Assembly (NCBI GenBank): GCA_903839725.1
Contig: CAIMDG010000003.1
Coordinates: forward strand, 31,829-95,828
Length of the DNA stretch: 64,000 nt
Origin: an uncultured bacterium
GTDB lineage: Bacteria > Patescibacteriota > Minisyncoccia > Phycocordibacterales > PALSA-1337
Direction: 5' to 3'
Made by a program: the position numbers and the translations under genes. Positions 3,097 through 64,000 of the stretch are shown in pieces. The notes beneath the pieces were generated by a model. It did no database searches. It had not been told where the DNA came from and saw only the letters and a program-made list of their open reading frames with translations. Every line of letters begins with the position of its first letter. Position 1 is the first letter of the stretch.

Positions 3097-5688
3097 ATGG
3101 CATTTTTAGATATATTAAAGGGGGGTTCACATACCCAGAATGTAAAGAAATTCCAGCCATTGGTTGGCAAAATTAATGCACTTGAATCAGGTATTAAGGC
3201 TCTTTCTGATATAGAATTAAAGGCAAAAACAGCTGAATTCAAGCAACGACTCGCGAATAAAGAGACTATCAATGATCTTTTACCAGAGGCATTTGCTGTT
3301 GTTCGTGAAGCTTCTAAAAGAACACTAGGACAAAGACATTTTGATGTACAACTTATCGGAGGTATGGTTTTGAATGCTGGAGGTATTGCTGAAATGAGAA
3401 CAGGTGAAGGTAAAACATTGGTTGCAACACTTCCTGCATATTTGAATGCACTTTCTGGTAAAGGTGTTCACGTTGTCACAGTTAACGATTACCTCTCGAG
3501 ACGTGATGCGGTATGGATGGGTCAGATATATGATTTCCTCGGACTTTCAGTTGGTGTAATCGGTAGCGAATCAAGTTTCTTATATGATCCTAAACACAAG
3601 TCTGATGTCACCCCGTCGAAGGACGGGGTCCAGAAGAAAGAACAGGATACATCGTCCGTGACTCTGGATTCCGGCCTCCGCCGGAATGACAAGCAAGAGA
3701 GTGGTTCCGACCCTCTCGACAAAGAACGCGATCAACTTGGTTCATTCAAAGTTGTTCATGAATTCCTACGTCCTGTTCCAAGAAGTGAATCATACAGAGC
3801 TGATATTACCTATGGAACAAATAATGAATTTGGTTTTGATTATCTCCGTGACAACCTTGAATACAGTCCTGATCGTTTGCGTCAACGTGAGCCAAATTAT
3901 GCAATAGTCGACGAAATCGATTCTATTTTGATTGATGAAGCACGTACACCACTTATTATTTCTGCACCAACTCGTAATGCTGAGAATATATACAAACAGT
4001 TTGCTTCTTTGGTTACCGCATTCAAGAAAGATGAGGATTATACAGTTGATGAAAAACACAAATCTATTTCTCTGACTGCAGACGGTATTACCAAGGCTGA
4101 GAAAGAGCTCAATATAGAAAATATCTATACAGACAAAGGCATCAAGTATGTGCACCATTTGGAGACTGCAATCAAAGCTCGTGCCATATATACCAAAGAC
4201 AAAGAATACGTCGTTAAAAATAATGAAATTGTTATTGTTGATGAATTCACCGGACGCCTCCAGCCTGGCCGTCGTTGGTCAGATGGTTTGCACCAAGCAA
4301 TTGAGGCCAAAGAAGGTGTGAATATTCAACAAGAATCACGCACATACGCATCTATTACATTCCAGAACTTTTTTCGTATGTATCCCAAGATGGGAGGTAT
4401 GACTGGTACCGCATCAACGTCAGCTGAAGAGTTTTATAAAGTGTATGGTCTCGAAGTTTATATTGTCCCTACAAATAAATCTGCAGTTCGTATTGATTCC
4501 AATGATCAGATTTTCCGTACGGAAATGGGTAAATTCAAGGCATTGGCGCGTAAGGTCAAAGAATTACACGCAAAAGGTCAACCAGTATTGATTGGTACAG
4601 TTTCTATTGAAAGAAATGAAGTGTTGTCAGCATTTTTGAAAGCTGAGGGCATTCCTCATGAAATTTTGAATGCCAAGAATCATGAACGTGAAGGAGAGAT
4701 TATTGCTCAGGCGGGCAAGAAGGGGGCAGTTACTATTGCTACCAACATGGCAGGACGTGGAGTGGATATCAAACTTGGAGGTAACCCAAACACTCCAGAA
4801 TCTGCTGAAGAGATCAAGAAAGCAGGAGGTTTGTTTGTGATGGGTACTGAACGTCATGAAGCGCGTCGTATCGACAATCAACTTCGTGGTCGTTCGGGTC
4901 GCCAAGGTGATCCAGGCGAGACCCAATTCTTCGTATCACTGGAAGATTCTCTTATGCGTGTATTTGCTTCAGATATGTTGAAGTCTATGATTGGCAAGCT
5001 TGGTATGGCTGAAGACGAAGCAATCGAACATAAACTTATTTCACGTTCTATTGAGAGTGCTCAACAAAAGATCGAAGGATTCAACTTTGATGCCCGTAAG
5101 CATGTCCTTGAATTTGATGACGTTATCAATCATCAACGTTCTTCAGTGTACAAGAATCGCCGTATGCTTCTCCTTGGTTCACTCGAACAAGTTGAAAATT
5201 ATTTACGTGAAATACTCACTGGGGATACTGATGCACTCGCCATGGTTGAAAAGAAAATTGCTGAACATGGTCGTGAAGCTTTCATTTCAGCTGTTCGCAT
5301 TATTTTGCTTCAAGCTATTGATATGTTTTGGGTTGAACACCTCGAGGTTATGGATTATACCCGCTCAAGTGTTAATCTCCGCGCCTACGGTCAACGAGAT
5401 CCATTGGTTGAATACAAGAAAGAAGGCCTTCGTCTATTCAAGGAAATGCAGTTCGCTATGAAGGAGCAAGTTGTTCGCATGATTCCTCATGTGGTACCTA
5501 CCAATAATGGTAAGCCTGTTCAAGCCCCTGAAGAAATGAAAGAAATTCAAACAAATGCACAAGAAATTTCAGGTGGTGATGGTTCAGCAACTCCTACAAA
5601 AAAGAAAGAAGGTGAAGTCGGCAGGAATGATCTCTGTCCTTGTGGAAGCGGTAAAAAGTACAAGAAGTGTCACGGAGCGGGGAAGTAG
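3097..5688 (+). CDS. secA: Preprotein translocase ATPase SecA, with an unusual ~65-aa insertion in NBD1
   Basis: DEAD-like motor motifs (MRTGEGKTLVATLPAYLNAL, ADITYGTNNEFGFDYLRDN, VDEIDSILIDEARTPLIIS) and a C-terminal zinc finger CPCGSGKKYKKCHG. Confidence 0.95.
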   Translation: MAFLDILKGGSHTQNVKKFQPLVGKINALESGIKALSDIELKAKTAEFKQRLANKETINDLLPEAFAVVREASKRTLGQRHFDVQLIGGMVLNAGGIAEMRTGEGKTLVATLPAYLNALSGKGVHVVTVNDYLSRRDAVWMGQIYDFLGLSVGVIGSESSFLYDPKHKSDVTPSKDGVQKKEQDTSSVTLDSGLRRNDKQESGSDPLDKERDQLGSFKVVHEFLRPVPRSESYRADITYGTNNEFGFDYLRDNLEYSPDRLRQREPNYAIVDEIDSILIDEARTPLIISAPTRNAENIYKQFASLVTAFKKDEDYTVDEKHKSISLTADGITKAEKELNIENIYTDKGIKYVHHLETAIKARAIYTKDKEYVVKNNEIVIVDEFTGRLQPGRRWSDGLHQAIEAKEGVNIQQESRTYASITFQNFFRMYPKMGGMTGTASTSAEEFYKVYGLEVYIVPTNKSAVRIDSNDQIFRTEMGKFKALARKVKELHAKGQPVLIGTVSIERNEVLSAFLKAEGIPHEILNAKNHEREGEIIAQAGKKGAVTIATNMAGRGVDIKLGGNPNTPESAEEIKKAGGLFVMGTERHEARRIDNQLRGRSGRQGDPGETQFFVSLEDSLMRVFASDMLKSMIGKLGMAEDEAIEHKLISRSIESAQQKIEGFNFDARKHVLEFDDVINHQRSSVYKNRRMLLLGSLEQVENYLREILTGDTDALAMVEKKIAEHGREAFISAVRIILLQAIDMFWVEHLEVMDYTRSSVNLRAYGQRDPLVEYKKEGLRLFKEMQFAMKEQVVRMIPHVVPTNNGKPVQAPEEMKEIQTNAQEISGGDGSATPTKKKEGEVGRNDLCPCGSGKKYKKCHGAGK
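3565..3790 (+). other. In-frame insertion in secA relative to canonical SecA (between LGLSVGV and YRADITYGTNNEF); its core 3606-3722 is GC-rich and forms two 8-bp GC hairpins
   Basis: ACCCCGTC-GAAG-GACGGGGT (3610-3629) and ATTCCGGC-CTCC-GCCGGAAT (3668-3687). E. coli and B. subtilis SecA have only ~11 aa at this position (recalled from memory). Confidence 0.55.
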
Positions 5689-5689
5689 T

Positions 5690-6013
5690 ATGAAAACACT
5701 CAAATTTTCAACAGAATTAGTACCACTCATCCTTTCAGGAGAAAAGACTTCAACGTGGCGTTTGTTTGATGATAAAGATTTGCGAACTGGAGATATTATA
5801 AGTTTGTTGAATAGTGTGACGAAGAAAGAATTTGCAAAGGCACAGATTCTAGCTATTAAAGAAAAAACACTAGGGCAAATTGGTGATGAAGATTTCGTGG
5901 GGCATGAACGATTTGAGAGTAAAGAAAAAATGTTTGATGTATATAAGTCATATTATGGTAATTCTGTGAATAGGGATACAATTGTTAAGATTGTAGATTT
6001 TAAGCTTAACTAA
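5690..6013 (+). CDS. ASCH (PUA-like) domain protein
   Basis: Small beta-barrel-type sequence (LILSGEKTSTWRL...GDII) typical of the ASCH family. The ATG at 5690 is 1 nt after the secA stop and in-frame with the track ORF that starts at 5555 and overlaps secA. Confidence 0.55.
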   Translation: MKTLKFSTELVPLILSGEKTSTWRLFDDKDLRTGDIISLLNSVTKKEFAKAQILAIKEKTLGQIGDEDFVGHERFESKEKMFDVYKSYYGNSVNRDTIVKIVDFKLN

Positions 6014-6017
6014 ATGT

Positions 6018-6572
6018 ATGGCAGAAAAAATACCTCCACCAATTTCATACGAATCATATATTCAAGAAATACAGCAGATGTGTGCTGAAGATCAGGCGAT
6101 GCGTACTCGAGCTTTAGAAAATGACATGATAATTGAATCAGAAGAAGATAATACTCTTGATGCTCGAAACACAAAGAGAATGAAAGAAATTGTTGCTGAA
6201 ATTGGGTGGCCAACTATTTCAAAGGTGGGAAAAGATATTTCAAATGATGCGTGGTTATTGGTTCAACATGCGGATCATGATCTTGCATTTCAAAAACAGT
6301 GTTTGGAAATGATGAAGCAACAGCCTAAAGTAGATGTTGATAGTAGTAATATTGCATATCTCGAAGATCGTATTCGTGTACATGAAGGCAGGCCTCAATT
6401 ATATGGAACTCAATTTTTCAGTGAAAAGATGGGTGACCCAATGATTCCTAGACCAATTGAAGACCCAAATAATCTGGACGCGAGAAGAAAAGCGGCGGGA
6501 CTTGAGCCTTTTAGTGAGTATGAGAAACATTACAAGGATAAGTATAAAAAATATGATAAACCAAAAGCCTAA
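6018..6572 (+). CDS. Hypothetical protein
   Basis: 184-aa ORF tightly packed between the ASCH and NUDIX genes. I recognise no motif. Confidence 0.45.
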   Translation: MAEKIPPPISYESYIQEIQQMCAEDQAMRTRALENDMIIESEEDNTLDARNTKRMKEIVAEIGWPTISKVGKDISNDAWLLVQHADHDLAFQKQCLEMMKQQPKVDVDSSNIAYLEDRIRVHEGRPQLYGTQFFSEKMGDPMIPRPIEDPNNLDARRKAAGLEPFSEYEKHYKDKYKKYDKPKA

Positions 6573-7050
6573 AAAAATCCTTACTCTCTGTCTGATCGTT
6601 AAAGATACTCGTATCCTCCTCGGTATGAAGAAACGTGGTTTTGGTGAAGGCCGCTGGAATGGTTTCGGTGGGAAACTTGAGCAAGGGGAAACCATCGATG
6701 CTGCCGCACGCAGGGAAGTACAAGAAGAGTCAGGTATTACGGTTACAACCATGAATGAAGTTGGTGTACTCGATTTCGAATTTCAAAGTGATCCGACAAA
6801 GCTTATGGAAGTTCATGTGTTTAAAGTCACTGAATTCAGTGGTGAGGCAATAGAGACCGAAGAAATGAAACCTCAGTGGTTCGAAAAGAATGAGATACCT
6901 TACTCACAGATGTGGTCAGATGATGAACATTGGTTGCCATTATTGCTCGCAGGTAAAAAATTCAAAGGTACTTTTCTGTTCGATAGACCGTCAGATGCAA
7001 CATATTCGGCCAAGATTATCAGTAAGAATTTAGTTGAAGTACAAAAATGA
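6553..7050 (+). CDS. NUDIX hydrolase (MutT-like)
   Basis: Nudix box GKLEQGETIDAAARREVQEESG. The start is chosen at MINQKPKK, which overlaps the stop of the upstream ORF by 20 nt. Confidence 0.8.
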   Translation: MINQKPKKILTLCLIVKDTRILLGMKKRGFGEGRWNGFGGKLEQGETIDAAARREVQEESGITVTTMNEVGVLDFEFQSDPTKLMEVHVFKVTEFSGEAIETEEMKPQWFEKNEIPYSQMWSDDEHWLPLLLAGKKFKGTFLFDRPSDATYSAKIISKNLVEVQK

Positions 7051-10498: not shown

Positions 10499-10616
10499 GC
10501 CCTACAGGAGGCATTGTACTTATTTTTGATACAAGTTTAGAGACACTTACATTACACCGCGTACCTCAATGTTTACAAACTTGTATCAAAAATAAGTACA
10601 ATGTCTCCTGTGGGGC
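10499..10616. repeat. PAL-A element copy A (core 10535-10580, same orientation as copy B)
   Basis: The conserved 46-nt core GTTTAGAGACAC(T/G)TACATTACACCGCGTACC(T/A)C(A/G)ATGTTTACAAAC is flanked by ~36-bp mutually complementary arms (two mismatches). Confidence 0.85.
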
Positions 10617-27107: not shown

Positions 27108-27126
27108 TTGGGAACATGCGACAGAA

Positions 27127-27243
27127 CCCCTCCACAACAGCCTGAATAAAACATCCGTGACGATATTAGATACGTGCCTGAAGAATAACGTAATGAGACG
27201 ATATCCCGCTGGGAATTGTTTTATTCAGGCTGTTGTGGAGAGG
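27127..27243. repeat. Long palindromic element: 24-bp perfect inverted arms (CCTCCACAACAGCCTGAATAAAACA) around a ~63-nt core containing a GACGATAT direct repeat
   Basis: Read directly: 27129-27153 against 27217-27240 (plus imperfect extensions). Confidence 0.7.
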
Positions 27244-27280
27244 TTCTTTACACTTGTTATATTTTATTGTAGGATTTGAT

Positions 27281-37868: not shown

Positions 37869-37886
37869 AGATAGTGAAAAATGAAA

Positions 37887-37940
37887 AGTGCAAAGTTAAA
37901 AGTTCAGCCACAGATGTGGCTGAACTTTTAACTTTGCACT
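37887..37940. repeat. 26-bp-arm near-perfect palindrome directly after the lepA stop (possible very long terminator hairpin)
   Basis: AGTGCAAAGTTAAAAGTTCAGCCACA with its reverse complement TGTGGCTGAACTTTTAACTTTGCACT, centred near 37913. Confidence 0.6.
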
Positions 37941-38095
37941 ATAAACTTTTAACTATTTTACTATCTCCAAATAGCAGGGAAATAGAGCAATATCATACTG
38001 ATAATAACGAGCACTGCAATCACGGTGAATCCTACACCTGCGAACTTTCTTGTTTTTTCATGAAATAACATAATAAATCTAGTATACTGTGAGAT

Positions 38096-38479: not shown

Positions 38480-38614
38480 AGGTAAGATATGAGAAAATTT
38501 TGGTCTCGATGTGGGTCTGAAGTACGTTAGAATGTAGAAAAATTCTGGTCTCGATTTAGCTTTGGCTACGCCAAAGCTAAATCTCGATCCGAATTTTCTT
38601 AGGAGAGAAAATTC
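38470..38614 (+). promoter_or_regulatory. tRNA leader module copy 1: tandem ~42-nt repeat each ending AAAATT(T/C)TGGTCTCGAT, a 13-bp hairpin (loop TAC), CTCGATCCGAATTTT, then AAATTC immediately 5' of tRNA-Gly
   Basis: Read directly. The same ordered modules recur upstream of tRNA-Thr at 53321-53429. Confidence 0.6.
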
Positions 38615-44451: not shown

Positions 44452-44730
44452 TTATTCCTTCGCTGTGGCTTTGTTTGTGTTTTCCGATAGAGTTGACCAC
44501 CCATCAGTGAGTGGTAAACCAGCCTCTCGGTTTTGTTTGATTTTTTCAATTATCGCTTTCAGAAGGGCGCAGGTCTTTGCAATATCTTCCTTCTGCGCGG
44601 CAACTGTTTGTTTGAGTTCGATATTTTCTTGCCGGAGAGCAGAATATTGCGCTCCTAGACTAACTATTCCAGTAGCAATACACATGTAGAGCAGAACCAG
44701 AATTACCCAAAATGTTTTTTGTTTATTCAT
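44452..44730 (-). CDS. Small membrane protein with a coiled coil (DivIC/FtsL-like architecture)
   Basis: N-terminal TM helix followed by a heptad-repeat segment (RQENIELKQTVAAQKEDIAK). Confidence 0.35.
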   Translation of the reverse strand: MNKQKTFWVILVLLYMCIATGIVSLGAQYSALRQENIELKQTVAAQKEDIAKTCALLKAIIEKIKQNREAGLPLTDGWSTLSENTNKATAKE

Positions 44731-45924: not shown

Positions 45925-46050
45925 CGAACACAGGAGGAACTGTGCATACTCATTTTCCACAGAAGTTTAGAGACACGTACATTACACCGCGTACCACGAT
46001 GTTTACAAACTTCTGTGGAAAATGAGTATGCACAGTTCCTCCTGTGTTCG
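45925..46050. repeat. PAL-A element copy B (core 45965-46010; arms a perfect 40-bp complement)
   Basis: Read directly. The track ORF start at 46022 lies inside this element. Confidence 0.9.
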
Positions 46051-46081
46051 CCCCTCAAAACGATATGGTATAATTATCCCC

Positions 46082-48874
46082 ATGAACGCGCCTCGCTTTG
46101 AGCAGCAGACAAAAACCGAAACACCGGAGCAAGAACTTTCTCGTATTCGTGAAGTTGCTTCGAAACATGTTGAAACTTCTCGTGAAAGTGGTATTGAAAT
46201 AAGTCCACGCACTGCTACCCATGAAGTCGTCAAAGCATATGCCGATACGATCACCAGTGAGGTATTGCATCCTAACTACGCTCTTGAGCACAAGGAAGTT
46301 GAAGCTATTACATTACAACTATCTCCGGAACCTCATGATAAACAAATAGAACAACTCCTCGGCATTATGGAAGAAAAGGGTATTAAGAATGCCTTGAATG
46401 TTGCCATGAAGATGAAAAATCCTCATTTACTTGATGATTTTTTTCGTGTACTCGTACAATGCGTTGCTTCCGGTTTTCCTATTCATGGACTTACAGAATC
46501 TGATCCACTCTGGAGACCGCTTCACATGACCCTATTCGAAGTCAGTCTTCCTGAGACATCAGAAGATGACAAGAAGAAACAGCTCAAAGAATTGATTTCG
46601 GGCATGCAGCAATTTTATGCTGGCATGATGACTGTATCCTCAGATGCGTGGTTCACTATTGAAATTGCAAATTCAAATGGAAGCGAAGAATCCATCTTCT
46701 ATGTTTCGGTGCCGACGATTCACGAAGAATTGTTCGAAAAACAAATTATTTCAATCTTTCCTGACGCTACACTTCGTGAGCATAAAAATGATTACAATAT
46801 TTTCAATGAATCAGGAATTTCGGTTGGTTCATATGCGACACTCGCCAAGCATCCACTATATCCGCTCAAACCTTACGAAGAGTTTGATGTCGATCCACTT
46901 AACTCACTATTAAGTAGTTTTTCAAAGATAAATAAAGACGGCGAAGGAGCCGCAATACAACTTGTTATTGGTGACAAGAGAGATACGTATGCCAAACAAG
47001 GCGCCAAAGTGCTCGAAAAGATTCGCAAGGGTGAAAAAGTCAAAGATGCACTGAGTGATGTGTACAGTGGTATTGCTCGTACATTTTTTAAAGAAGTTGG
47101 GTACATGTTCAAGAGTCAGGAAAAAATTGATAAGGAAAAAAGTGAGAAAGAAAAGCGTGCAAGTGCAGTCGATCAGATATCGATTGATCAATTTACAGAA
47201 AAATTGAAGTCACCATTTGTGTCAGTGAATATCCGTATCGTTGCATCAGCAGCAACTGTTGATGAATCAACTGGTCTGTTGCTCGATTTGCAATCAAGTT
47301 TCCATCAGTTCGAGAATGGTCACGGCAATGCCTTGAATTGGAAAGCGGTTAGTCCAGCTGTGTTGCCGGATTTCTTGGAAGAATTTTCATTGCGTACGTT
47401 CAGTAAAGAAGAAGAGATTATTCTCAGTCTCAAGGAAATGACAACATGTATCCATTTCCCAGCTTCTACTGTCGGTCGTGCCGCACCTGGTCTCAAGCAG
47501 AGCAAGGCCGGTACATCTCCTGTTCCTTTGGAAATTTCGAAACAAGGAACACTTATTGGTTTGAATAAACATCGCGGTGTTGAGTCAAAGGTATATATTG
47601 CCCCTGAGGATCGTATGCGTCACTTCTATGTGATCGGTCAAACTGGTACCGGTAAAACTGGCTTGCTCAAAAATATGATTGTTCAAGATATCCAAGCAGG
47701 ACACGGTGTCTGTTTCATCGATCCACACGGTTCGGATATTATGGATATTTTGGCGAATATTCCGCCAGAACGTTATGAAGATGTTATCTATTTTGATCCC
47801 GCATCTGTTGATCGTCCGATGGCACTTAATATGCTCGAGTATGATCGCTCATCTCCTGAGCAGAAGACATTCGTGGTCAATGAAATGTTTAGTATATTCC
47901 AGAAGCTCTACGGGGCTACACCTGAGTCCATGGGTCCAATGTTCGAACAATATTTCCGTAACGCTACGATGTTGGTGATCGAGGATCCTGATACTGGTTG
48001 TACATTGCTCGACGTATCTCGTGTTATGTCGAACAAAGCATTTCGTGATTTGAAGATAGCCAATTGTAAGAACCCGGTTATCGTTCAATTCTGGAAAGAG
48101 ATTGCCGAAAAAGCTGGAGGTGAAGCATCTCTTGCAAATATTGTGCCATATATCGTTTCAAAGTTCGACGTCTTCTTGGCGAATGAAATCATGCGACCAA
48201 TCATTGCTCAAGAAAAGTCATCATTCAATATGCGTGACGTGATGGATAATAAAAAGATTTTGCTCGTGAATCTCGCAAAGGGAAGACTCGGCGATATCAA
48301 CTCACATTTGATTGGTCTTATTCTCGTCGGAAAAATTTTGATGGCAGCATTGTCACGTGTTGATTCATTTGGTAAGCCAATGTCTGATTTCTTCTTGTAT
48401 TTGGACGAGTTCCAGAATATCACCACTGATTCGATCGCTACGATTCTTTCTGAAGCTCGTAAGTATCGTTTGTCGATGACTATCGCGCACCAATTCGTTG
48501 CACAACTCGAAGATAAGATCAAAGATGCTGTATTCGGTAACGTCGGTTCGATGGCGGTATTCCGTGTAGGTACCGAAGATGCTGAATTCTTCGAAAAACA
48601 GTTTACGCCAACATTCAAGCAGAACGACATCATCAATCTCGACAATCGTAATGCCTATGTGCGCCTATTGTCTGGTGGACGTCCAACCAAACCGTTCAAT
48701 ATTGTGACTGTGCAAGCAGAAAAAGGTGATCCAGCTCAAGTAGACAAGTTGAAAGAACTCTCATCATTGATTTTTGGTAGACCACGCGCTGAGGTTGAAG
48801 AAGAAGTCATGAAGAAGTACAATTCTATGAAGAAGCCGTTGGCTATACCAGAAGTGCCTCTTGCTAGAAAATAA
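46082..48874 (+). CDS. TraD/VirD4-like (TrwB/TraG family) P-loop NTPase with a ~500-aa N-terminal domain of unknown function
   Basis: Walker A YVIGQTGTGKTG, then FIDPHGSDIMD and a Walker B-like FFLYLDEFQNI, resembling T4SS coupling-protein/DUF87-type ATPases. Start chosen at MNAPRFEQ, downstream of PAL-A copy B. Confidence 0.5.
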   Translation: MNAPRFEQQTKTETPEQELSRIREVASKHVETSRESGIEISPRTATHEVVKAYADTITSEVLHPNYALEHKEVEAITLQLSPEPHDKQIEQLLGIMEEKGIKNALNVAMKMKNPHLLDDFFRVLVQCVASGFPIHGLTESDPLWRPLHMTLFEVSLPETSEDDKKKQLKELISGMQQFYAGMMTVSSDAWFTIEIANSNGSEESIFYVSVPTIHEELFEKQIISIFPDATLREHKNDYNIFNESGISVGSYATLAKHPLYPLKPYEEFDVDPLNSLLSSFSKINKDGEGAAIQLVIGDKRDTYAKQGAKVLEKIRKGEKVKDALSDVYSGIARTFFKEVGYMFKSQEKIDKEKSEKEKRASAVDQISIDQFTEKLKSPFVSVNIRIVASAATVDESTGLLLDLQSSFHQFENGHGNALNWKAVSPAVLPDFLEEFSLRTFSKEEEIILSLKEMTTCIHFPASTVGRAAPGLKQSKAGTSPVPLEISKQGTLIGLNKHRGVESKVYIAPEDRMRHFYVIGQTGTGKTGLLKNMIVQDIQAGHGVCFIDPHGSDIMDILANIPPERYEDVIYFDPASVDRPMALNMLEYDRSSPEQKTFVVNEMFSIFQKLYGATPESMGPMFEQYFRNATMLVIEDPDTGCTLLDVSRVMSNKAFRDLKIANCKNPVIVQFWKEIAEKAGGEASLANIVPYIVSKFDVFLANEIMRPIIAQEKSSFNMRDVMDNKKILLVNLAKGRLGDINSHLIGLILVGKILMAALSRVDSFGKPMSDFFLYLDEFQNITTDSIATILSEARKYRLSMTIAHQFVAQLEDKIKDAVFGNVGSMAVFRVGTEDAEFFEKQFTPTFKQNDIINLDNRNAYVRLLSGGRPTKPFNIVTVQAEKGDPAQVDKLKELSSLIFGRPRAEVEEEVMKKYNSMKKPLAIPEVPLARK

Positions 48875-48903
48875 AGCGTTTTATACATAATCAATTAAAT
48901 TTT

Positions 48904-49482
48904 ATGACTATTGAAGACCAGCAAAATAGTATTGAAGGTGAAGTAGCAATTCTTTCCTTGCAAGCAATACAAGCATCATTGGAAAGCGGTAAACCTATCG
49001 AGGTCAAAGTTAAACGTTCTGATGGCAAGATTGAATCGGGGTGGAGTATCGTGCAAATGTTTTTGGGCGAAGGGGATGAACCAGTAAAAGTGAAAGTCGT
49101 TGGTGAATCTGGTTCAAAGATTGTCTCGCTTGATAGTGTACAAAAATGGAATAATCCGGAAGAGGTTCCAAGAGGAAAGGAAGCTATCCTTACTCCAGAA
49201 TCGATCCATGATTTACTCGGAAAAAATCAAGACATAGAAGTGAGTGTCAAACGTTCTTCTGGTGAAATAGAGCCAGGATGGAAGGTTACCGATCTATATG
49301 TTGGGGTTGGCAATGAACCAGTAAGAGTTAAAGTTGTGAACGGTCTAGCATCAAAAATTGTTTCACTTAATGATTTGAAGGAATGGAACATTCAAGATGA
49401 AATTGATAATGCTGAAGAACGACCGGCACGTGACTTTAATGTTCGTCCACCAACTGAAGGAGAAATAAATAGGGGAGTATAA
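48904..49482 (+). CDS. Hypothetical protein with a tandem-duplicated ~70-aa domain
   Basis: The internal repeat IEVKVKRSDGKIESGWSIVQMFLGEGDEPVKVKVVGESGSKIVSLDSVQKWN aligns with IEVSVKRSSGEIEPGWKVTDLYVGVGNEPVRVKVVNGLASKIVSLNDLKEWN. Confidence 0.5.
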   Translation: MTIEDQQNSIEGEVAILSLQAIQASLESGKPIEVKVKRSDGKIESGWSIVQMFLGEGDEPVKVKVVGESGSKIVSLDSVQKWNNPEEVPRGKEAILTPESIHDLLGKNQDIEVSVKRSSGEIEPGWKVTDLYVGVGNEPVRVKVVNGLASKIVSLNDLKEWNIQDEIDNAEERPARDFNVRPPTEGEINRGV

Positions 49483-49514
49483 TGAAGAATAAATAAGTTT
49501 GTATAAAAAAGTAC

Positions 49515-49545
49515 GGCGAGCAGGTTTTGAAGTCTGCTCGCCGGG
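49515..49545. terminator. Bidirectional terminator hairpin (GGCGAGCAG...CTGCTCGCC) between convergent genes
   Basis: Read directly. Confidence 0.5.
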
Positions 49546-49546
49546 G

Positions 49547-49795
49547 TTACAGTTTGTTGTGCAACCAAGTGCACAGTTCCGCGATTGTCTTAAGGACTCC
49601 CTTAAGAAACAGTCGCCCGATGTTGATTAGGCTCTTGAGGATCGGCTTTCCGATTTTCTTCAAGAATTTGAGTTCCCAATCAGCGATTTTCTTGCCTCTA
49701 CCTATCCCACACCCCCTGAGGACCAGTGCGAGGGCTACGGATATGAATAGCAGGGCAAGACCTGCTCGGACGAGTTCGGCGAAAAGAGCGTTCAT
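49547..49795 (-). CDS. Small cationic protein with one hydrophobic helix and Lys-rich amphipathic helices (holin- or bacteriocin-like features)
   Basis: AGLALLFISVALALVL is followed by KKIADWELKFLKKIGKPILKSLINIGRLFLKGVLKTI. Confidence 0.3.
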   Translation of the reverse strand: MNALFAELVRAGLALLFISVALALVLRGCGIGRGKKIADWELKFLKKIGKPILKSLINIGRLFLKGVLKTIAELCTWLHNKL

Positions 49796-49867
49796 TTGGT
49801 AAAATTATAGCATATTATATATGCTATTGTCAATCTCCATATTTTAGATTAAATATATAGGGTTTTT

Positions 49868-50000
49868 GGGAGCAGACTCCACAGGAGGTGCTGTACTCAT
49901 TTTCTGCACAAGTTTGTAAACATTGTGGTACGCGGTGTAATGTACATGTCTCTAAACTTGTGCAGAAAATGAGTACAGCACCTCCTGTAGGGTCTGCTTC
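49868..50000. repeat. PAL-A element copy C (core 49912-49957, inverted relative to copies A and B)
   Basis: Read directly. Ends 19 nt before the 3' end of the MFS gene. Confidence 0.9.
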
Positions 50001-51206: not shown

Positions 51207-51338
51207 TATCAAAACCGTGGCAGGGGTGTGTACTCATTTTCTGCATAGGTTTGTAAACATTGAGGTACGCGGTGTAATGTACGTGTCTCTAAACTTATGC
51301 AGAAAATGAGTACACACCCCTGCCACGGTTTTGAGATA
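51207..51338. repeat. PAL-A element copy D (core 51249-51294, same orientation as copy C)
   Basis: Read directly. Begins 19 nt beyond the MFS start codon. Confidence 0.9.
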
Positions 51339-53320: not shown

Positions 53321-53429
53321 TAGGGAAAATCTGGTCTCGCTTTCCCTGGGAGAGGAAATTCTGGTCTCGTCTTCATCATTGCTTACGCAATAATGAAGAC
53401 TCGATCCGAATTTCGCAAAGCCGAAATTC
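53321..53429 (+). promoter_or_regulatory. tRNA leader module copy 2: GGGAAAATCTGGTCTCG, GAGGAAATTCTGGTCTCG, a 14-bp hairpin (loop TTAC), TCGATCCGAATTTC, then GAAATTC immediately 5' of tRNA-Thr
   Basis: Same order and spacing as the module upstream of tRNA-Gly. Confidence 0.6.
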
Positions 53430-63223: not shown

Positions 63224-64000
63224 ATGGTAGCCAAACTCCTCAATTTACGCCCTGAACCCAAGCCAATCATCATCGAAAAGGTGATACAGGTAAAACGAAT
63301 ATGGTGGCTGGAAATATTGAAGATGGTTACAGTCATTACTGTGGTCTCTAGTATCGTATATGGTATCTCCAAGGCTGACATAACTATCCCAACTTCATCA
63401 GTACAAAGCTTCAGTGCATTCGGTACTGTATCTGACATGTCTCCGGAAGTTATTTCTATTGAAAATGCACGATCCTCTGAAAAAGCAGGAGCAGTTTCAT
63501 ATACCTTCAAACTGACAGATGTTAAGAAGATTGAAAATCGTATACACGTAGCACTCCTCATGTCTGATATCCATGTTGGTGACAAAATTGTTGCTATGGG
63601 TATGTCGAATGATGGTGCAGTGACCATCAACCGAATTATTTCATTCTCATCTACTGCCACAACTAGTGATGTAGTTGCAATTCCACTCACAGCAAGTACC
63701 ACTGCTACATCAACTCTTGAAAATGCAACTTCAACAGCATCAACTACTTCAGTGGTAGCTACTTCTACTGCAACATCTACCGCATCTTCAACTCAATCGG
63801 GAGATTCAGTAAACATTTCAACAACCACCGCATCAACAACTCTTGAGATTGCAAGTTCAACAGCATCAACTACTCCAGTAGTGGCTACATCTACAGCTAC
63901 TACAACTGATAGCACCGCGACAACAACTCCAAGTAGTGCTACTTCAACAGATACAACAAATATTTCGACGACTACTTCCTCGGGATCAACGGCTCCTGCA
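63224..64000 (+). CDS. Ser/Thr-rich surface protein (N-terminal TM/signal anchor, small folded domain, then a long ATSTASTT-type low-complexity region); runs off the window end
   Basis: Frame open from the ATG at 63224 to nt 64000. Absent from the track because it has no stop. The antisense track ORF 63139..63702 is probably an artefact. Confidence 0.6.
   Translation, partial: MVAKLLNLRPEPKPIIIEKVIQVKRIWWLEILKMVTVITVVSSIVYGISKADITIPTSSVQSFSAFGTVSDMSPEVISIENARSSEKAGAVSYTFKLTDVKKIENRIHVALLMSDIHVGDKIVAMGMSNDGAVTINRIISFSSTATTSDVVAIPLTASTTATSTLENATSTASTTSVVATSTATSTASSTQSGDSVNISTTTASTTLEIASSTASTTPVVATSTATTTDSTATTTPSSATSTDTTNISTTTSSGSTAPA

Follow-up and report, generated by a model that had tools for sequence, protein, structure and literature searches.

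Coupling ATPases of the VirD4 type have been described in two settings close to the locus reported here. A survey of type IV secretion systems (T4SS) in Patescibacteria (Quinonero-Coronel et al. 2025, PMC12102498) counted 5,713 VirD4-type homologues in 2,918 genomes, just 148 of them near virB4; relaxases were rare (109 in 103 genomes), T4SS were widespread, chromosomal and apparently co-opted for non-conjugative roles, and a homologue of t4cp, the gene for the type IV coupling protein (T4CP), was not essential in Ca. Southlakia epibionticum, with exaptation suggested as a possibility. In phages, SPO1 gp27.4 and 0305phi8-36 orf201 were proposed to be anchor-less VirD4-like coupling ATPases and were placed in a "DNA translocation operon" beside a MobC-type relaxase, the operon being dispensable in the laboratory (Pathria et al. 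2012, PMC3357382). Here we analyse a related ATPase gene in a 64-kb stretch of DNA from an uncultured bacterium (contig CAIMDG010000003.1, positions 31,829 to 95,828; the whole stretch of 64,000 nucleotides is called the window), where the gene lies between two inverted copies, B and C, of a long hairpin repeat termed PAL-A. The preliminary description of this DNA had read the B-to-C segment as a composite mobile cassette. Our analysis indicates instead that the segment is very probably vertically inherited chromosome of a member of the Paceibacteria (candidate phyla radiation, CPR; Parcubacteria, Taylorbacteria-like), that the PAL-A copies are independent intergenic elements, and that the ATPase is a widely conserved translocation-type motor.

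The window contains four copies of PAL-A:

10499-10616, plus strand: PAL-A A, 41 nt after the gatB stop and without relation to the ATPase segment.
45925-46050, plus strand: PAL-A B, 126 nt, with 51-nt arms that are 94% complementary and a 24-nt loop; following the glutaredoxin stop (45911) by 14 nt and preceding the putative ATPase promoter; 137.7 bits with covariance model R1.
49871-49998, minus strand: PAL-A C, 128 nt, with 53-nt arms that are 91% complementary and a 22-nt loop; 21 nt downstream of the MFS stop (50019, minus strand); 138.7 bits with covariance model R1.
51209-51334, minus strand: PAL-A D, between the divergent MFS and rpsB genes.

In a composite mobile cassette, the inverted copies B and C would act as terminal inverted repeats that move the ATPase, a repeat protein and a small membrane protein together. 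The opposite orientation of B and C was borne out by our repeat search, which aligned them at 90% identity over 82 nt; relatives of the ATPase family do occur on plasmids and phages, and a 4-kb contig of another sample starts within PAL-A B. Comparison with relatives nevertheless speaks strongly against a cassette. In the three closest loci (L001-L003, ATPase 88% identical), the genes follow the same order as in the window, namely enolase, three small genes, methyltransferase, glutaredoxin, ATPase, repeat protein, small protein (minus strand), MFS (minus strand), rpsB and tsf, and neither junction alignment nor searches with the loop motif and the covariance model found PAL-A at the B or C junctions of these loci. 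Synteny without PAL-A at the borders was the pattern that the preliminary description had named as telling against its own proposal, and this is the pattern found. The corresponding spacers of L001 measure 88 bp between the glutaredoxin and ATPase genes and 59 bp between the small gene and MFS; at the first of these, a gap of ~80 nt in the junction alignment of the window with L001 coincides with PAL-A B, and L001 carries only a short hairpin, whose outer 7 bp (CGAACAC/GTGTTCG) are in common with PAL-A B.

Divergence and composition agree with this picture. Nucleotide identity to the closest relatives is 81.6% for the ATPase gene, 85% for enolase and 81.5% across MFS-rpsB-tsf, so that the segment has diverged in step with its housekeeping flanks, and its GC content (0.41-0.43) equals theirs. 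In more distant loci (L004, L011 and L012, ATPase 72-86% identical), the ATPase still stands between the methyltransferase and MFS, followed by zero to three variable genes; because only the small genes between ATPase and MFS vary there, the boundaries of insertion and deletion do not match B and C. Copy C is nearer to D (94%, direct orientation) than to B, and no target-site duplication or direct repeat flanking B...C was found. Among the open reading frames (ORFs) scanned in the window, none encodes a transposase, integrase, relaxase, VirB6, VirB8 or T4SS channel protein; the scanned ORFs are uncharacterised or housekeeping genes (SecA, MurB, Obg, GatB, AspRS, RNR, MurJ, LepA, iPGM, enolase, S2 and EF-Ts). 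Presence or absence as a unit, a transposase or integrase among the scanned ORFs, a duplication, flanking copies that are most similar to each other and atypical composition, the hallmarks of a composite transposon, are all lacking in the B-to-C segment, and we regard such an origin as highly improbable.

The same inverted geometry could also let B and C recombine and so invert the 3.8-kb segment in a programmed way, as a phase-variation switch; opposite orientation at 90% identity and the contig end within PAL-A B in one assembly would be compatible with it. Contigs of other samples with an identical ATPase protein, however, show the same arrangement across both hairpins, and a single orientation was seen in all junction-spanning contigs of other samples and of relatives. 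The hairpin-proximal genes, moreover, appear to have their own promoters inside the segment, so that inversion would not switch their expression, and no invertase gene was found. A switch of this kind is hard to credit.

Evidence on the ATPase itself refers to the following features:

46022-48874, plus strand: ORF of the ATPase; the start ATG at 46082 (MNAPRFEQ...) is supported by homologues and gives a protein of 930 aa.
46082-48874, plus strand: ATPase, predicted to be soluble, of the DUF8128 / PHROG 5156 family, with a VirB4-NTD-like (NTD, N-terminal domain) N-terminal half and a T4CP (VirD4/TraD)-like P-loop motor.
46082-47476, plus strand: N-terminal half, aa 1-465, with a predicted helical extension at aa ~15-130 and an alpha/beta core at aa ~145-460 that corresponds to DUF8128.
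47636-47659, plus strand: Walker A motif GQTGTGKT, aa 519-526, invariant in 35 homologues.
48395-48418, plus strand: Walker B region LYLDEFQN, aa 772-779, of which D775, E776, F777, Q778 and N779 are invariant in 35 homologues.
46066-46074, plus strand: extended -10-like box TGGTATAAT, 7 nt before ATG 46082, read from the sequence.

The ~930-aa frame with its P-loop motifs (VIGQTGTGKTGLL, CFIDPHGSD and FLYLDEFQNITT) is as first described, and its interpretation as a coupling-protein or TrwB-like motor fused to a long N-terminal domain, which is soluble, is supported by Pfam matches and by a fold match to TrwB. The Pfam matches are real, if weak: T4SS-DNA_transf (PF02534; E 1.8e-7; 30.8 vs a cut-off of 20.1), TraG-D_C (PF12696; 24.9 vs 22), TrwB_AAD_bind and, as a borderline case, DUF87 (23.8 vs 23.2, over 50 residues around Walker A). 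These scores, with T4SS-DNA_transf above its gathering score, together with similarity to the NCBIfam TraD and CD1115 models and a motor that matches the TrwB fold (template modelling score, TM, 0.57-0.61), would be compatible with a canonical T4CP (VirD4/TraD) bringing relaxase-bound DNA to a conjugative T4SS whose genes lie elsewhere in the genome. Such a role is nonetheless improbable. Canonical T4CPs have an N-terminal transmembrane anchor, and none is present here: in a hydropathy scan, aa 1-700 were free of hydrophobic segments and KD19 exceeded 1.6 in a single window, a core helix at aa 739, and the N-terminal half is VirB4-like instead. The NCBIfam scores fall far below their cut-offs (53 vs 366, 40 vs 250 and 37 vs 648; TIGR03743 and NF045973 among the matches), relaxase and mating-pair formation (MPF) genes are absent from the scanned ORFs of the window and are not recurrent in 83 ATPase loci, and relaxases are rare in Patescibacteria as a whole (109 in 103 genomes; PMC12102498). 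A housekeeping FtsK or HerA identity, which would also have removed the ground for a mobile element, finds no backing either: Pfam gave no FtsK_SpoIIIE match, HerA appeared only as a lower-ranked fold match, and no NurA-like neighbour was seen around the ATPase loci.

The N-terminal domain had been reported as unrecognised. The long domain is indeed there, but it belongs to an existing Pfam family, PF26449 (DUF8128), and is remotely VirB4-NTD-like. In a Foldseek search of the PDB with the full-length AlphaFold model, the best match was TrwK/VirB4 (E 2.7e-14, 910 columns), the motor domain also matching TrwB, Cag-beta and HerA. When aa 1-465 were modelled separately (predicted local distance difference test, pLDDT, 79; predicted TM score 0.72), a soluble alpha/beta fold was obtained, for which TrwK/VirB4 was the only NTD matched: the top 14 matches were TrwK/VirB4 chains (E 1.5e-5 to 1e-3), and the next was unrelated (E 0.047). 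When the PDB was searched by sequence, with either the protein itself or a family profile as query, only Walker-A-level matches were obtained, to TrwB and DotL (E 0.002-0.1), and VirB4 and VirD4 are therefore not separable by them. Profiles and models taken together, the ATPase is predicted to be of VirB4-type architecture with a T4CP-like motor, DUF8128 being a putative remote VirB4-NTD-like domain.

This architecture raises the further option of a second VirB4-type ATPase that energises or assembles a patescibacterial MPF-FATA-like T4SS or pilus for host-cell interaction, with protein as its substrate. The two-domain build and the N-terminal fold match VirB4/TrwK along the whole length, and T4SS are widespread, chromosomal and seemingly co-opted in Patescibacteria (PMC12102498). 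Against this stand the Pfam results, with no match to CagE_TrbE_VirB or AAA_10 at E <= 0.01, the NCBIfam results, with VirB4_plasma at just E 0.0059 (14 bits vs a cut-off of 590), and the gene neighbourhoods, in which the ATPase is never beside VirB3, VirB6 or VirB8 analogues in 83 loci. We consider this option rather unlikely.

Set beside described proteins, the ATPase shares with VirB4/TrwK its two-domain soluble build (alpha/beta NTD and RecA-like motor) and its best whole-length fold match; it differs in lacking a VirB4-type Pfam family, in the low TM of the match (0.25-0.35), in not being encoded with VirB3/VirB6/VirB8 and in a motor sequence nearer to T4CPs. With the T4CPs VirD4/TrwB/TraD it has in common the Walker A/B motor, the T4SS-DNA_transf and TraG-D_C matches and the TrwB fold (TM ~0.6), but it has no transmembrane anchor, carries a 465-aa VirB4-like N-terminal half in its place and scores far below the cut-offs of the NCBIfam equivalog models. 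Like most of the 5,713 patescibacterial homologues, it is encoded far from virB4 and without a relaxase (PMC12102498), which for the window ATPase is judged from the 64-kb window. The window ATPase fits the published picture of orphan patescibacterial T4CP homologues; it is an additional member of an already known, functionally uncharacterised family (DUF8128 / PHROG 5156 / orphan patescibacterial T4CP homologues).

The family has many members and is strongly conserved. We retrieved 645 homologues at E <= 1e-5, of which the best 120 are mostly full length (few partial) and 57-88% identical; PF26449 followed by T4CP-type domains is found in all 120 of these listed homologues and in an identical protein (P0001), for which PF26449, PF02534 and PF12696 were taken from precomputed Pfam annotation, the local Pfam scan not having returned the PF26449 model. 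Mean column identity among 35 diverse members is 68%, with Walker A (GQTGTGK) and Walker B (DEFQN) invariant. At least 595 species-representative genomes encode a relative of the ATPase; where record titles bear a taxon they are all patescibacterial, mostly Paceibacteria/Parcubacteria including Taylorbacteria, Nomurabacteria and Zambryskibacteria, many other titles reading "uncultured bacterium" or carrying a generic Saccharibacteria label. In the 83 ATPase loci whose neighbours were called and clustered, the commonest context is ...S8-L6-L18-S5-L15-secY-adk-map-ATPase-NDK; L20/L35, L21, RmuC-like, YqeY-like and beta-lactamase-fold proteins are further recurrent neighbours, and no T4SS component or relaxase recurs within +/-10 kb. 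A setting of this kind is characteristic of a core gene passed on vertically. In shorter relatives (~800 aa), aa 1-140 are missing, and a cluster look-up of these variants returned almost no names. Literature searches gave no matches for "DUF8128" and nothing decisive on FtsK in CPR bacteria. One Nomurabacteria metagenome-assembled genome holds two DUF8128 ATPase genes (L021 and L081, on CALRBL010000059 and CALRBL010000034, 58% and 52% identical to the query), which reflects either paralogy or a mixed bin.

Homology extends to phages and plasmids. The profile phrog_5156 matches the ATPase at E 1.1e-87, with residues 173-919 aligned to positions 51-814 of the 824-position profile, and tblastn found proteins of 20-26% identity in SPO1-like Bacillus phages, phage G and Geobacillus phage GBK2, as well as relatives on Bacillus, Streptomyces, haloarchaeal and Sulfolobus plasmids. 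Profile alignment with hhalign linked the family to SPO1 gp27.4 (98.7%, E 3e-16, 731 columns) and to GBK2 gp32 (98.2%), and both alignments span the DUF8128 core as well as the motor. The phage coupling ATPases (SPO1 gp27.4, 0305phi8-36 orf201 and GBK2 gp32; PHROG 5156) are thus like the window ATPase over ~730 aligned positions, are of comparable length (856-906 aa vs 930 aa) and likewise have no transmembrane N-terminus, but they are just 20-25% identical to it and do without its extra helical N-terminal extension of ~140 aa. Their surroundings differ too: the phage genes adjoin a relaxase or nicking initiator, a partition or MreB-like protein and, in 0305phi8-36, a VirB6-like protein (PMC3357382), whereas the window gene is stand-alone and chromosomal, among housekeeping genes. 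In SPO1, the homologue (L095, 92636-95356) lies between a partition protein (gp27.9) and gp27.3 ("replication initiation by nicking"); that of GBK2 (L094, 23270-25840) lies upstream of RecE/RecT/SSB/DnaD-like genes, and both full-length homologues accordingly sit in replication or recombination regions.

Several findings weigh against our overall interpretation of the locus. The contig mentioned above (L010, 4,010 bp, from another sample) starts 142 bp upstream of the ATPase start, inside PAL-A B (only its start was placed), which most likely reflects assembly breakage at a strong hairpin repeat. L001 carries a diverged PAL-A-like hairpin at the D site, so that the PAL-A family is older than the window species, and loss at B and C in L001 is indistinguishable from gain in the window lineage. 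On the protein side, the fold likeness between the NTD and VirB4 is remote (TM ~0.35, root-mean-square deviation ~8 A); the full-length model is of moderate quality (pLDDT 70.6), with a poorly predicted helical insert at aa 586-720; the Pfam matches are weak and the NCBIfam matches far below curated cut-offs. Finally, the neighbours of the ATPase are housekeeping genes that are uninformative on its substrate, and no partner gene points to one. The helical insert in the motor sits where TrwB has its all-alpha domain.

By analogy with VirB4, TrwB and HerA, the ATPase would form a hexameric ring and use ATP to pump a polymer through a central channel, and its VirB4-like N-terminal domain would probably dock the ring onto the membrane or a protein partner, replacing a transmembrane anchor. 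Our estimate is evenly balanced on whether the substrate is DNA (or nucleoprotein), a choice favoured because the phage homologues adjoin nickases or relaxases and because the motor is closest to T4CPs. The main alternative, in which the ATPase energises a patescibacterial T4SS-like apparatus as a second VirB4-like ATPase, is doubtful, and a link to a T4SS or to DNA uptake, touched on in the preliminary description, is putative. Intact ATPase motifs, strong purifying conservation and a stand-alone chromosomal context go together here, and we see the protein as most likely a domesticated hexameric translocation motor: its family probably has its source in the plasmid- or phage-type "DNA translocation" modules found in monoderm bacteria and, after capture, would have been domesticated as a stand-alone core gene in Paceibacteria.

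A more far-reaching and tentative proposal is that DUF8128 ATPases stand apart within the VirB4/VirD4 superfamily as a distinct third lineage, with a VirB4-type docking NTD joined to a T4CP-type motor. On this view, phages or plasmids of monoderms would have supplied the lineage from their relaxase-linked "DNA translocation operons"; it would then have become established throughout Paceibacteria as a stand-alone gene, frequently with ribosomal-operon linkage, and might power an essential, non-conjugative import or export of DNA or nucleoprotein in the episymbiotic lifestyle. Orphan T4CP homologues in Patescibacteria are already published; what is added here is modest, namely the VirB4-like nature of the NTD, the full-length homology to phage "coupling ATPases" and the frequent ribosomal-operon linkage. 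It sharpens the description of an abundant, uncharacterised patescibacterial ATPase (soluble, with a VirB4-like NTD, a T4CP-like motor, SPO1-type phage homologues and secY-adk-map linkage), narrows the hypotheses for the "orphan T4CPs" of the 2025 Patescibacteria T4SS survey, and offers SPO1 gp27.4 as a tractable Bacillus-phage homologue for experiments.

Upstream of the ATPase gene, the block AAAACGATATGGTATAATT around the -10 box is conserved in L001. A simple promoter scan did not list this box and found no -35 match. Its position suggests transcription of the ATPase gene from a promoter of its own, giving an mRNA with no leader or almost none. Downstream, the segment contains two accessory genes and a second promoter:

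48904-49482, plus strand: acidic protein of 192 aa in which a ~75-aa domain (IEVxVKRSxGxIExGW...KIVSL...WN) occurs twice; its start lies 30 nt beyond the ATPase stop.
49547-49795, minus strand: protein of 82 aa with an N-terminal hydrophobic helix (KD19 2.5) and a cationic amphipathic tail; isoelectric point (pI) 10.4, 14 K+R vs 4 D+E.
49804-49833, minus strand: sigma-70 promoter, TTGACA, 18-nt spacer, TG and TATAAT, matching 12/12 consensus positions, 9 nt before the start of the 82-aa gene.

That the 192-aa protein is built from two domain copies, as first proposed, is confirmed by the local alignment of its halves, which scores 178 vs 29 +/- 6 for shuffled sequences; the L001 orthologue is longer (415 aa) and has three repeat copies. 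Among 5.8 billion proteins it has 3 homologues, and no Pfam, NCBIfam, PADLOC or PHROG family was assigned to it. In L004, L011 and L012 it is replaced by unrelated genes, and it is therefore no conserved partner of the ATPase; it is variable and lineage-restricted, occurring in the closest relatives only.

The small minus-strand cationic protein likewise holds up as a real ORF: it is kept in L001, where it aligns to a 70-aa orthologue, and the promoter block of its gene is conserved there as well. We regard it as a real gene that encodes a predicted small membrane protein, and the short distance from promoter to start suggests a leaderless or near-leaderless mRNA. The holin- or bacteriocin-like role first attributed to this protein is not borne out by Pfam, NCBIfam or PADLOC, none of which gave a match; its sole PHROG match is marginal and to an uncharacterised family (phrog_35987, E 0.0037), and no endolysin gene is adjacent. 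Another small protein with an N-terminal hydrophobic segment, of 92 aa (44452-44730, minus strand), shows weak matches to an Rz-like spanin and to LysB (PHROG 739, E 9e-5; TIGR03495, E 0.006), with no lysis genes nearby; this likeness is probably compositional only.

The variable small genes also bear on the idea of an anti-phage defence ATPase, HerA-like or similar to mad8 of MADS, with its small neighbours as effectors. PADLOC reported a mad8 match (E 9e-14, residues 511-898), HerA matches were weak, and the genes downstream vary among relatives, an NTP_transf_2 gene being found there in L004. The mad8 match, however, spans the motor domain only, and both it and the HerA matches were judged to reflect generic motor similarity; further defence components are missing from the neighbourhood, and the 57-88% identity across orders among the best 120 homologues, like the ribosomal-operon position, is unlike patchy, fast-evolving defence islands. 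A defence role is very unlikely. In L004, the relative with 86% identity, the slot between ATPase and MFS (5080-6803) is a small variable islet, possibly a toxin-antitoxin-type module: the repeat and 82-aa proteins are replaced there by unrelated genes for proteins of 151 aa and 92 aa and for an NTP_transf_2/Polbeta nucleotidyltransferase.

Intergenic palindromes that occur in multiple copies in either orientation, lie strictly between genes and vary between close relatives are familiar from ERIC/IRU, REP/BIME, Correia/NEMIS and other elements resembling miniature inverted-repeat transposable elements (MITEs), and PAL-A is like them in these respects. It differs in occurring in CPR bacteria, in having no sequence similarity to them and in its unusually long, near-perfect stems (47-53 bp). 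Very probably it is a species-level hairpin repeat of ~125 nt, present in at least four copies at transcription-unit boundaries and gained or lost independently of the genes between. The copies share a core of ~82-86 nt, TA-CTCATTTTC...GAAAATGAG-TA, and the window has 4 occurrences of the loop core ACATTACACCGCGTACC, vs 0.02 expected by chance. Their outer stems differ from copy to copy and yet stay complementary within each, with 29 of 53 pairs changed on both sides. Each copy folds at -62 to -88 kcal/mol (z -13 to -19; B at -87.7, z -19). Since these RNA folding energies are similar on both strands, the transcribed strand is not inferable from them. Copies A, B and C have the same orientation as their respective upstream genes, and no T-run follows any copy. 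On the outer stems of A, B and C, one arm carries ACAGGAGG and the other CCTCCTGT, which have a Shine-Dalgarno / anti-Shine-Dalgarno look; this pair could be an older layer of PAL-A or a coincidence.

PAL-A appears to be confined to a narrow lineage. An Rfam scan of the window at gathering thresholds found RNase P RNA and two tRNAs only, with no family at the PAL-A sites, so that PAL-A is not a described RNA family. An exact-pattern scan of GTDB species genomes for the loop gave zero matches, which means that the window species is not represented there and that PAL-A is lineage-restricted; a metagenome scan recovered three short contigs from one sample, from a relative ~91% identical in DNA. 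Over 27 other loci, covariance model R1 matched L001 (at the D site) and these three contigs, and none of the 23 loci of other relatives.

At the D site, an outer stem (AAAACCGTGGCAGGGGTGTG...CACACCCCTGCCACGGTTTT) is common to the window (51209-51334), L093 (1332-1457) and L001 (13578-13704), and the inner ~80 nt differ: the window has PAL-A, L093 a different palindromic core within the same TA...TA, and L001 a core that resembles PAL-A but runs in the opposite direction and has another loop. In the window, the ~82-86-nt core at this site is flanked by TA dinucleotides and occupies the middle of an outer palindrome specific to the locus. This arrangement suggests MITE-like behaviour of palindromic modules, which would insert into, or be exchanged at, the middle of a palindrome already in place, possibly with TA duplication and independently of the ATPase. 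PAL-A would then be a CPR-specific, MITE/ERIC-like repeat with a swappable core, a small and separate curiosity.

Three further long intergenic hairpins, unrelated to PAL-A in sequence, lie elsewhere in the window: 37871-37956 (42-nt arms, starting 3 nt after the lepA stop), 27123-27247 (31-nt arms, 97% complementary) and 1730-1839 (perfect 30-nt arms separated by 50 nt). This genome seems to favour long hairpins downstream of genes. A motif (...CTCGATCCGAATTT) stands at 38555-38596 and again at 53372-53413, ~20 nt upstream of tRNA-Gly (38615) and tRNA-Thr (53430). Matches to it also occur in upstream regions of L092 and L093, and it could serve as a promoter or leader of tRNA genes. Two 82-nt direct repeats that are 82% identical and spaced by 126 nt (63693-63900, towards the right end of the window) may represent a tandem coding repeat.

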